64,000 nucleotides of DNA from the NCBI GenBank assembly GCA_964394855.1, contig CAYMZD010000001.1, forward strand, positions 40,340 through 104,339, given 5' to 3'. Source of the stretch: an uncultured Gammaproteobacteria bacterium. Lineage in GTDB: Bacteria > Patescibacteriota > Microgenomatia > Daviesbacterales > UBA10151. The position numbers and the translations under genes are program-made. The notes under the pieces were generated by a model. It did not search any database and was not told the origin of the DNA. It saw only the letters and a program-made list of their open reading frames with translations. Of the stretch, positions 54,632 through 55,261 are shown in pieces (the first letter of the stretch is position 1; every line of letters begins with the position of its first letter).

Positions 54632-55261
54632 GTGATTGCAAGACTTTTAATTTCACCATCGCTGGATTTGAGGGTAAGAGAGATTGAAGATAAGTTAAAA
54701 AGCAGTAACCTGACCAAAACTCACCCTGATATTTATTACATAGAAGCAGAGCAAAAACTGGGAATTGCAGAGGCTAGAAAAATTAAAGAACATTTTTCCT
54801 TAAAACCATATTCTGCCAAAGGTAGAACTGTAGTTATAGAAGATGCTTCGGTGATGACCATTGAAGCCCAAAATGCCCTGCTAAAAACTCTGGAAGAACC
54901 GCCGGAAGAAGCAGTGTTAATTTTGGCAGCTCCTTCAGATGCTAATCTTTTACCCACTATTTTATCCAGATGCGAGATCGTTCGACTACCGACTACCGAC
55001 TACCGACTACCGACTAATACAGATATTGAAAAATTACTTAATTATTCTATAGAAGAAAAATTTGAATACATAGAAAAATTAAAAGATAGAAAAGAGTTTC
55101 TATCATCTTTAATTAGTTATTTCCGCCAGAAATTACCTGCCAATTTAGAGTTTACCAAAGAACTTCTGCAAGCAGAGCAGTGGTCCAAACAAAATGTAAA
55201 TATTAGAGGAATTTTGGAATACCTGCTCCTTAAAATGCCTTCTATGGAAAGCTCATCTTAA
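54632..55261 (+). CDS. DNA polymerase III delta-prime (HolB)-like protein lacking the Walker A N-terminal region. GTG start. Contains a heptanucleotide repeat.
   Basis: [21 protein letters not shown] and ILSRCEIV (sensor 2) motifs. There is no P-loop. An in-frame stop lies 3 codons upstream of the GTG. Confidence 0.55.
54984..55018. repeat. Heptanucleotide tandem repeat (CGACTAC)x5 inside the holB-like CDS
   Basis: Read directly from the sequence. Encodes [12 protein letters not shown]. Confidence 0.9.

Follow-up and report, generated by a model that had tools for sequence, protein, structure and literature searches.

Repeats whose unit length is not a multiple of three are usually purged from genes, or they serve as on/off switches of accessory genes. 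The O-acetyltransferase gene neuO on prophage CUS-3 of Escherichia coli K1 contains (AAGACTC)n within its open reading frame (ORF), a 7-nt unit that is read in three frames, codes for a 7-amino acid (aa) peptide repeat and gives the full-length protein only at one class of repeat number modulo 3 (PMC13001214). The repeat number in neuO ranges from 3 to 53, 65.6% of the genes are OFF among 64 complete genomes, and minority alleles reach 2–5% within one culture (PMC13001214). In Haemophilus influenzae, heptanucleotide simple sequence repeats (SSRs) in the hmw1A/hmw2A promoters and in the ORF of a HI1369 homologue tune the promoter or shift the reading frame; the tracts comprise 8–38 units and vary between strains (PMC2651432). 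We analyzed a 64-kb stretch of contig CAYMZD010000001.1 (64,000 nt, in the following called the window), in which a gene for a HolB-like delta-prime subunit of the clamp loader harbors an array of the unit CGACTAC. As in H. influenzae the unit has 7 nt, and as in neuO it lies within an ORF, is read in three frames, codes for a 7-aa peptide repeat and allows the full-length product at one class of repeat number only. We conclude that the gene probably codes for a functional minimal delta-prime with a hypervariable linker, and that this linker is encoded by an inherited, frame-constrained heptanucleotide microsatellite.

A Heptamer Array at a Conserved Position

The array starts at codon position 1 of Arg118, at the end of strand beta5, codes for a linker that is predicted with low confidence, and consists of four complete CGACTAC units followed by CGACTA. 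A first-pass annotation of the window had counted five tandem units; the repeat is real, and Tandem Repeats Finder gave 4.9 copies with a partial last unit. The array was the only place in the window with a lag-7 identity of at least 0.8 over 35 nt, and by our own estimate a perfect tract of 34 nt is expected by chance about 1e-11 times in 64 kb. In simulated alleles, the addition or removal of one or two units ended the protein at 123–144 aa with loss of the helical domain, while the frame was kept with ±3 units. The expectation of the first-pass annotation that a slip by one unit would frameshift the C-terminal half of the gene was therefore correct for these alleles.

To compare the array with the corresponding region of related genes, we scanned metagenomes with the C-terminal half of the gene (alignment A3) as query; an earlier scan of contigs had been dominated by the generic EAQNALLK pattern and comprised seven close relatives. 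The family DNA covered about 90 loci (numbered with L) and 59 distinct loops, with the loop defined as the stretch between the SRC motif and the conserved DIEKLL helix. Lag 7 was the best period in 35 of the 59 distinct loops, and clear arrays (lag-7 identity of at least 0.6 over the first 35 nt) were present in 22 of them, at the same place, in the same register and with about five units. A lag-7 identity of at least 0.64 was reached by 251 of 1432 loop windows compared to 0 of 31248 windows from the remaining parts of these genes. The period was also visible at the protein level, where at least two of the first four loop residues recurred seven positions further on in 59 of 109 homolog loops. 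Homologous arrays were found in dozens of independent metagenomes, and heptamer periodicity was absent in the distant delta-prime or DnaX homologs (L008–L080).

The sequence of the unit varied between loci. The unit CGACTAC was present in the window, in L081 (CAZVEX010000006.1, also with 4.9 units) and in L083, and the window copy was the most perfect array seen. Other units were AGAATTA (L084, L102, L153), CGAATWA (L129, L136), AWGATTC (L098), ACAGTTT (L096), CTACGAA (L163), AGGTTAC/AGGGTAC (L093, L090, L154, L101), AGGGKRA (L128), AGTCRTC (L001) and AAGKNAC (L152).

The Reading Frame Is Kept

We found no clean out-of-frame allele of the array among the ~90 loci. Only two clean frame breaks were present, both outside the array: a 1-nt indel downstream of the loop in L085 and a deletion of ~20 nt upstream of the loop in L130. 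Twelve pairs of near-identical contigs showed no difference in copy number; the loops were identical in eleven pairs, and L149 and L150 differed by one base.

Three truncated members of the protein cluster (P0129, P0132, P0136) were considered as OFF alleles and were not counted, as the contigs L164, L167 and L168 are ambiguous. The scaffold L164 (2830..3010) is interrupted within the array by an NN gap and an insert of 135 nt, with array copies on both sides; L167 (700..883) is a short contig of 883 bp that continues into unrelated sequence; and in L168 (1260..1307) the contig ends and a TAA follows directly on the array. We read these breaks as assembly problems.

Units of One Array Evolve in Concert

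Units showed 74% identity within an array and 47% identity between arrays at the same unit position, which indicates concerted evolution. Since synonymous sites are saturated between the lineages (dS ~1), an array that was not homogenised would have lost its periodicity. In L168 and L163, which have identical flanks, the same G-to-C change distinguished all four units. In L091, units 2 and 4 shared a T-to-C change that alters the amino acid in one of them and is silent in the other; this speaks for copying of DNA rather than for peptide-level selection. A super-period of 14 nt was seen in three lineages (L098, L091, L129). With a perfect (AGAATTA)n tract, a TAA would come to lie in frame; L084, L153 and L102 avoid this stop codon, each by a different substitution.

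The units share a loose consensus, [A/C]G[A/G]NT[A/T][C/A]. This consensus corresponds to what is needed for the Arg-hydrophobic codons where beta5 ends, which suggests that the array was seeded from a constrained first unit. The window array, as the most perfect one, should be most prone to slip, but slippage would yield a null allele instead of a regulated state.

Loop Cassettes Are Exchanged between Strains

A 365-nt tract that includes the array is free of mismatches between the window and L081 (Table 1). Outside of this tract, the 5' 230 nt of the gene were only ~65% identical, with a similar value (~65%) for the segment 54635..54721, and gyrB was 79% identical. The simplest reading of this pattern is short-patch recombination, which would be recent and would have taken place between species; the other one is a chimera from co-assembly.

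A second case was more confined. L084 (1140..1728) and L165 (16..606)/L166 were 100% identical over nt 1–300 and 397–591 of the gene, and differed in a patch of 95 nt with ~55% identity that covers the SRC motif, beta5 and the loop as well as the first part of the helix behind it. L084 carries an AGAATTA array in this patch, and L165/L166 carry a loop with a palindrome (ILGNETTPKSESWTNQ). Furthermore, two N-terminal alleles and two loop alleles occurred in every possible pairing among the cluster members P0006, P0124, P0008 and P0131. Loop cassettes of ~95 nt have thus been replaced between near-identical strains, with co-assembly chimeras as a caveat.

Family members that lack a heptamer array often had perfect palindromes in the stretch coding for the linker, as seen in the loops of L141, L108, L094/L095, L118, L119/L147, L157, L140, L149/L150 and L007/L004/L115. 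Their stems comprised 8–18 bp, with 18 bp in L141. In L094 and L095 the stem was kept and the bases of the hairpin loop were changed. No motif shared among the palindromes of the array-less loops was seen.

The Gene Codes for an Intact Short Delta-Prime Protein

The first-pass annotation had described the gene as an N-terminally truncated, degenerate or paralogous holB. The protein is identical to MBI4038178.1 (HY387_00790, from a 218-kb contig of a Candidatus Daviesbacteria bacterium; cluster member P0121). It matched the Pfam family DNA_pol3_delta2 (PF13177) with 100.2 bits (gathering score 27), restricted to profile positions 65–159 of 161. The score of 106.2 bits for TIGR00678, the NCBIfam equivalog for holB, was below the cut-off of 180.6, and all PRK models for delta-prime stayed below their cut-offs as well. 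Residues 3–202 aligned to positions 5–199 of the 206 positions of PRK08485 / NF006296, with an E value of 1.4e-16 and 61 bits (cut-off 140). The N-terminal part of the PF13177 profile thus has no match in the protein, while the alignment to PRK08485 runs end to end.

A homolog search over 5.8 billion proteins gave 6543 matches at E ≤ 0.001. The best 120 of these had a length of 191–227 aa (median 209), 114 of them started with M-I-A-R/K like the window ORF, and a Walker A pattern was present in one. The few named proteins among them were from Candidatus Daviesbacteria or Microgenomates. In alignment A1 the N-terminus of the window protein ran end to end with the homologs, with an invariant core and two hypervariable stretches. 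For the core we determined ratios of non-synonymous to synonymous substitution (dN/dS) of 0.08–0.20 at dS ~0.7–2 between the window gene and seven relatives, showing that the gene is conserved under purifying selection.

The HPD motif, the clamp-loader box and the SRC motif named by the first-pass annotation are all present. The profile search aligned SRC to the same motif in 1a5t and 2gno; its Arg is the arginine finger of clamp-loader subunits, and the former label "sensor 2" for this motif was wrong. The absence of a Walker A region had been recognized correctly: no Walker A-like motif was found in the protein or in any plus-strand frame of 54200..54750. An upstream exon with Walker A in another frame, which would have pointed to a simple frameshift or a sequencing error, was looked for in the same region and was not there. 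No paralog or second copy of delta-prime was present in the 64-kb window. Since the short form and the N-terminus are kept in the best homologs and there is no upstream exon, truncation was not borne out, and the low dN/dS, the invariant core and the lack of a paralog in the window speak against a degenerate or paralogous gene. We concluded that the gene is the normal delta-prime form of Candidatus Daviesbacteria and not a fragment.

The model obtained with AlphaFold2 (AF2) had a mean predicted local distance difference test (pLDDT) score of 80.7. Strand beta5 comprises residues 115–118, and the linker lies between this strand and helix 129–136. The confidence was low in the linker, with pLDDT <50 at residues 123–126 and a mean of 54 for the block 121–130. 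In relatives the loop has 11–36 aa, and its sequence is unrelated between lineages. The part behind the linker is made up of five helices only (residues 129–200). The best Foldseek matches in the PDB were B. subtilis HolB (9a80_B), TM0771 (2gno), E. coli delta-prime (1a5t) and the small subunits of replication factor C (RFC), with a probability of 1.00 and E values of 3e-9 to 1e-6 for the top matches; the TM-score normalised to the query was only ~0.5. A profile search against the PDB retrieved the same families, with 2gno as the best match (E 5.6e-16).

Residues 2–30, which replace the P-loop and contain helix alpha1, form a second hypervariable part that is rich in indels and mosaic; in some relatives, such as P0006, it comprises ~12 residues and no helix.

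Features and Gene Neighborhood

The features of the locus are collected in Table 1. The GTG start is backed by the MIA[RK] N-terminus that is common to the homologs, and GTG is also the start codon in L081. The first-pass annotation was right in placing this codon three codons behind an in-frame stop and in stating that the start of pilB fills the upstream space: the ATG of the divergent pilB is at 54606, and 25 nt separate the two starts. A replication origin at this strand switch was considered and dropped, given the intergenic gap of 25 nt and a weak GC-skew signal.

Table 1. Features of the delta-prime locus and its direct neighbors in the window.
Feature	Position	Strand	Basis
pilB (type IV pilus assembly ATPase), divergent upstream neighbor	52885..54606	-	PF00437 T2SSE 444.6 bits, MshEN 66.6 bits
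In-frame TAA (54620..54622), three codons, GTG start (54632..54634)	54620..54634	+	Sequence
Delta-prime (HolB-like) gene, minimal, P-loop-less; 209 aa, GTG start	54632..55261	+	ORF list, PF13177, alignment A1, AF2/Foldseek
Beta1 (residues 2-7), 3-residue turn SPS in place of the P-loop, hypervariable helix alpha1 (11-24) before HPD	54635..54721	+	AF2, alignment A1
HPD motif (residues 31-33)	54722..54730	+	H31, P32 and D33 invariant in A1
Clamp-loader box (residues 78-91)	54863..54904	+	E78-P91 invariant in A1; aligns to the same motif in 2gno and 1a5t
365-nt tract, 100% identical to L081 (255..619), array included	54866..55230	+	Alignment A2, blastn of flanks
SRC motif (residues 112-114), followed by strand beta5 (EIVRL)	54965..54973	+	S112, R113 and C114 invariant in A1
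Heptanucleotide array (CGACTAC)x4.9	54983..55016	+	Tandem Repeats Finder: period 7, 100% matches
Inter-domain linker (residues 118-131), hypervariable loop	54983..55024	+	AF2 pLDDT; loop sequences unrelated between lineages
C-terminal helical domain (helices 129-136, 140-149, 153-166, 172-186, 191-200)	55016..55231	+	AF2 model
gyrB, downstream neighbor	55308..57245	+	Pfam DNA_gyraseB, Toprim, HATPase_c, DNA_gyraseB_C

The downstream neighbor of delta-prime varies. While gyrB follows directly in the window, L081 has an additional ORF of 249 aa (652..1401) before gyrB. A HicA/HicB toxin-antitoxin pair is located downstream in L164 and L166, HicB alone in L082 and L165, and a small sigma70_r4 ORF lies beyond the Hic genes in L164–L166. 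The gyrB gene of the window contains a 6-nt repeat of its own (AGCCAG x4.5 at 56480..56506, 82% matches), which is in frame and codes for an Ala/Arg-rich stretch.

On the minus strand, pilB belongs to a long type IV pilus-like gene cluster (~40300..54606) that also comprises a PilT-like ATPase (51831..52883) and, at ~44.5–50.5 kb, several ORFs with prepilin-type N-termini (GFTL[VI]E[LIV]L). The window holds ten tRNA genes, five of which are clustered on the minus strand at 12534..13670 (Gly-GCC, Phe-GAA, Val-TAC, Leu-GAG, Leu-CAG).

Origin and Maintenance of the Array

We propose that the ORF codes for a working stator subunit of the HolB type, in which a short turn after beta1 would stand where the P-loop is otherwise found and a small C-terminal helical domain would follow the core, and that the linker between beta5 and the helical domain is under little constraint at the protein level. 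The array would start from the Arg-hydrophobic codons that close beta5, and an ancestor common to much of the family may already have had it. Slipped-strand or gene-conversion events with zero net change in length would then have homogenised it in each lineage, and recombination patches of ~100 nt would have carried it between strains. Purifying selection would remove variants that break the frame or delete the linker. Slippage or conversion is presumably the mechanism, and the repeat itself probably has no programmed function.

Several points weigh against this explanation. Homogenisation needs events of one or two units, each of which alone breaks the frame, and the escape from the resulting null alleles is unexplained. 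Other variable parts of the delta-prime genes do not contain such repeats, and it is therefore too simple to assume that any unconstrained loop will behave in this way. Perfect inverted repeats were enriched in array-less loops, with stems of at least 8 nt in 13 of 59 loops versus 31 of 626 control windows, which hints at a process or function at the DNA level that is specific to the linker spot. That the gene is essential and single-copy is a presumption. Assemblies give the majority allele, so that a minority of OFF cells would be invisible, and the three contigs that break at the array could hide real variants. Finally, many of the duplicate "independent" contigs probably stem from the same population.

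We consider it rather unlikely that the array is kept for a function, be it as a hypermutable generator of linker diversity under diversifying selection, with short-patch recombination to spread the variants and phage inhibitors of the clamp loader as a possible target, or as a low-frequency switch by which part of the population would stop replication. Several more specific alternatives were weighed.

Diversifying selection could act on the loop peptide, for example to escape from a phage inhibitor of the clamp loader or to follow a variable partner, with the microsatellite and recombination generating and spreading the variants. This would account for close relatives with wholly different sequence and length of the loop and identical flanks (L084 and L165), for the four combinations of N-terminal and loop alleles in P0006, P0124, P0008 and P0131, for the mosaic structure of the second hypervariable segment around helix alpha1, and for the persistence of both array and hairpin alleles across species. 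A period of 7 nt, however, has no rationale at the protein level, the loop is predicted to be disordered, and the mosaics are possibly in part co-assembly chimeras. Moreover, dN/dS cannot be measured in the loop because the loop sequences cannot be aligned, and we know of no partner or inhibitor for this loop. We regard such selection as an unlikely cause.

It is more doubtful still that the array and the palindromes form a nucleic acid element embedded in the coding sequence, such as a protein-binding site, a recombination hotspot or an mRNA element for holB/gyrB. An element of this kind would fit the periodicity, which persists in the DNA in spite of the coding constraint, the enrichment of palindromes in loops that have no array, and the position of the recombination patches, which include the loop or are centred on it. 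Against this, the units share only a loose consensus that is accounted for by the Arg-hydrophobic codons of beta5, the palindromes have no common motif, and the downstream neighbor is not conserved. We found no RNA structure in the array region, which was less structured than shuffled controls (z = +1.4). Rfam gave no meaningful match to the region; the sole match at E ≤1 was STnc410 with 17 bits (gathering score 50, E 0.64), a chance-level match outside of the array. The array region thus gave no indication of an RNA element. We also dropped mutagenesis of the diversity-generating retroelement (DGR) type, programmed ribosomal frameshifting and RNA binding like that of HutP or TRAP, as there was no A-specific variation, no slippery site and no conserved triplet.

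The first-pass annotation saw in the locus a classic contingency layout with possible phase variation. A slip by one unit would turn delta-prime OFF or ON in a subpopulation, as bet-hedging by arrest of replication for example, or a truncated domain-I product would have a role of its own. The unit of 7 nt inside an ORF, with four perfect copies and a partial one, is of the expected kind, since the protein is cut short by a change of one or two units and restored by a change of three; concerted evolution shows that events of the slippage type occur over evolutionary time, and three assemblies break at the array. The comparison of the loci did not support a switch. About 22 diverged lineages all have ~5 units in frame, near-identical contigs do not differ in copy number, and the relatives show neither the variation in repeat number nor the common OFF alleles of a contingency locus. 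Five units are also short for a hypermutable tract. The gene is neither a surface, a restriction-modification nor a conditionally useful gene, but codes for a clamp-loader subunit of the replication core under strong purifying selection. With no clean OFF allele among ~90 loci, against 65.6% OFF for neuO (PMC13001214), we judge a switch to be very unlikely.

A degenerate or truncated holB paralog on its way to a pseudogene is highly improbable: the missing Walker A, the 106 bits against a TIGR00678 cut-off of 180.6 and the length of 209 aa compared to ~330 aa of canonical proteins suggested it, but the architecture and N-terminus are kept in the best homologs, dN/dS is 0.08–0.20, the motifs are invariant, the model is confidently folded and the 64-kb window holds no paralog. 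That the perfect repeat was made by assembly or sequencing is hardly credible; although the tract that contains the array matches another assembly at 100% identity and some assemblies break at such arrays, the same array with an intact frame occurs in two separate assemblies (window/MBI4038178.1 and CAZVEX010000006.1), and homologous arrays occur in dozens of independent metagenomes.

We therefore favor the minimal delta-prime with an inherited, frame-constrained microsatellite. In many species with saturated synonymous sites, a core replication gene has retained a 7-nt array, and the codon register of this array has stayed the same. If our explanation is true, the locus is a natural case for concerted evolution of a microsatellite under absolute frame constraint, and the delta-prime linker of Daviesbacteria is a hotspot for slippage, for the formation of palindromes and for short-patch recombination. 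For annotation, the P-loop-less protein of ~200 aa should be named delta-prime of Daviesbacteria and not a fragment. Arrays like this one are also places where metagenome assemblies break or turn chimeric.

Comparison with Known Systems

The delta-prime proteins of E. coli and B. subtilis (1a5t, 9a80_B) have the same fold as the window protein by Foldseek (E 3e-9 to 4e-8) and by profile search (E 3e-13). They share the AAA+-like domain I, the clamp-loader box, the SRC motif and the lack of a working ATP site. Compared to canonical delta-prime, the window protein is ~120 aa shorter and is devoid of the helix before beta1, the P-loop remnant and the zinc module. The linker after beta5 comprises 12–25 aa, compared to ~6 aa for canonical delta-prime (taken from the known sequence of the E. 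coli protein). Compared to the lid and collar domains of canonical delta-prime, only ~80 aa of helices come after the linker.

The best match by sequence among the solved structures, and the second-best by fold, was TM0771 from Thermotoga maritima (2gno, "DNA polymerase III gamma subunit-related protein") with 27% identity. As in the window protein, the region equivalent to HPD is close to the N-terminus in TM0771, at about residue 45. Unlike the window protein, TM0771 has 305 aa, a full C-terminal part and no linker encoded by a repeat.

The short delta-prime of PRK08485 / NF006296, a protein of the Helicobacter/Campylobacter type, resembles the window protein in size and architecture, while the window protein scores below the cut-off of the model, does not count as a member and belongs to another phylum. 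We know of no heptamer array in genes of the PRK08485 type. The end-to-end alignment to PRK08485 implies that short P-loop-less delta-prime proteins were already known. Such proteins and coding heptamer repeats are thus each known separately; the literature we searched contained no description of a 7-nt array that is conserved, keeps its register and evolves in concert within a core replication gene, or of a delta-prime from the candidate phyla radiation (CPR).

Among the heptamer repeats, the delta-prime array differs from that of neuO in being fixed at ~5 units across lineages, in its position in an internal linker instead of the 5' region, in its location in a housekeeping gene and in that no OFF alleles were seen. 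The heptamer SSRs of H. influenzae, with 8–38 units that vary between strains, are associated with surface and uptake genes (PMC2651432), whereas the array described here lies in a subunit of the replication clamp loader.

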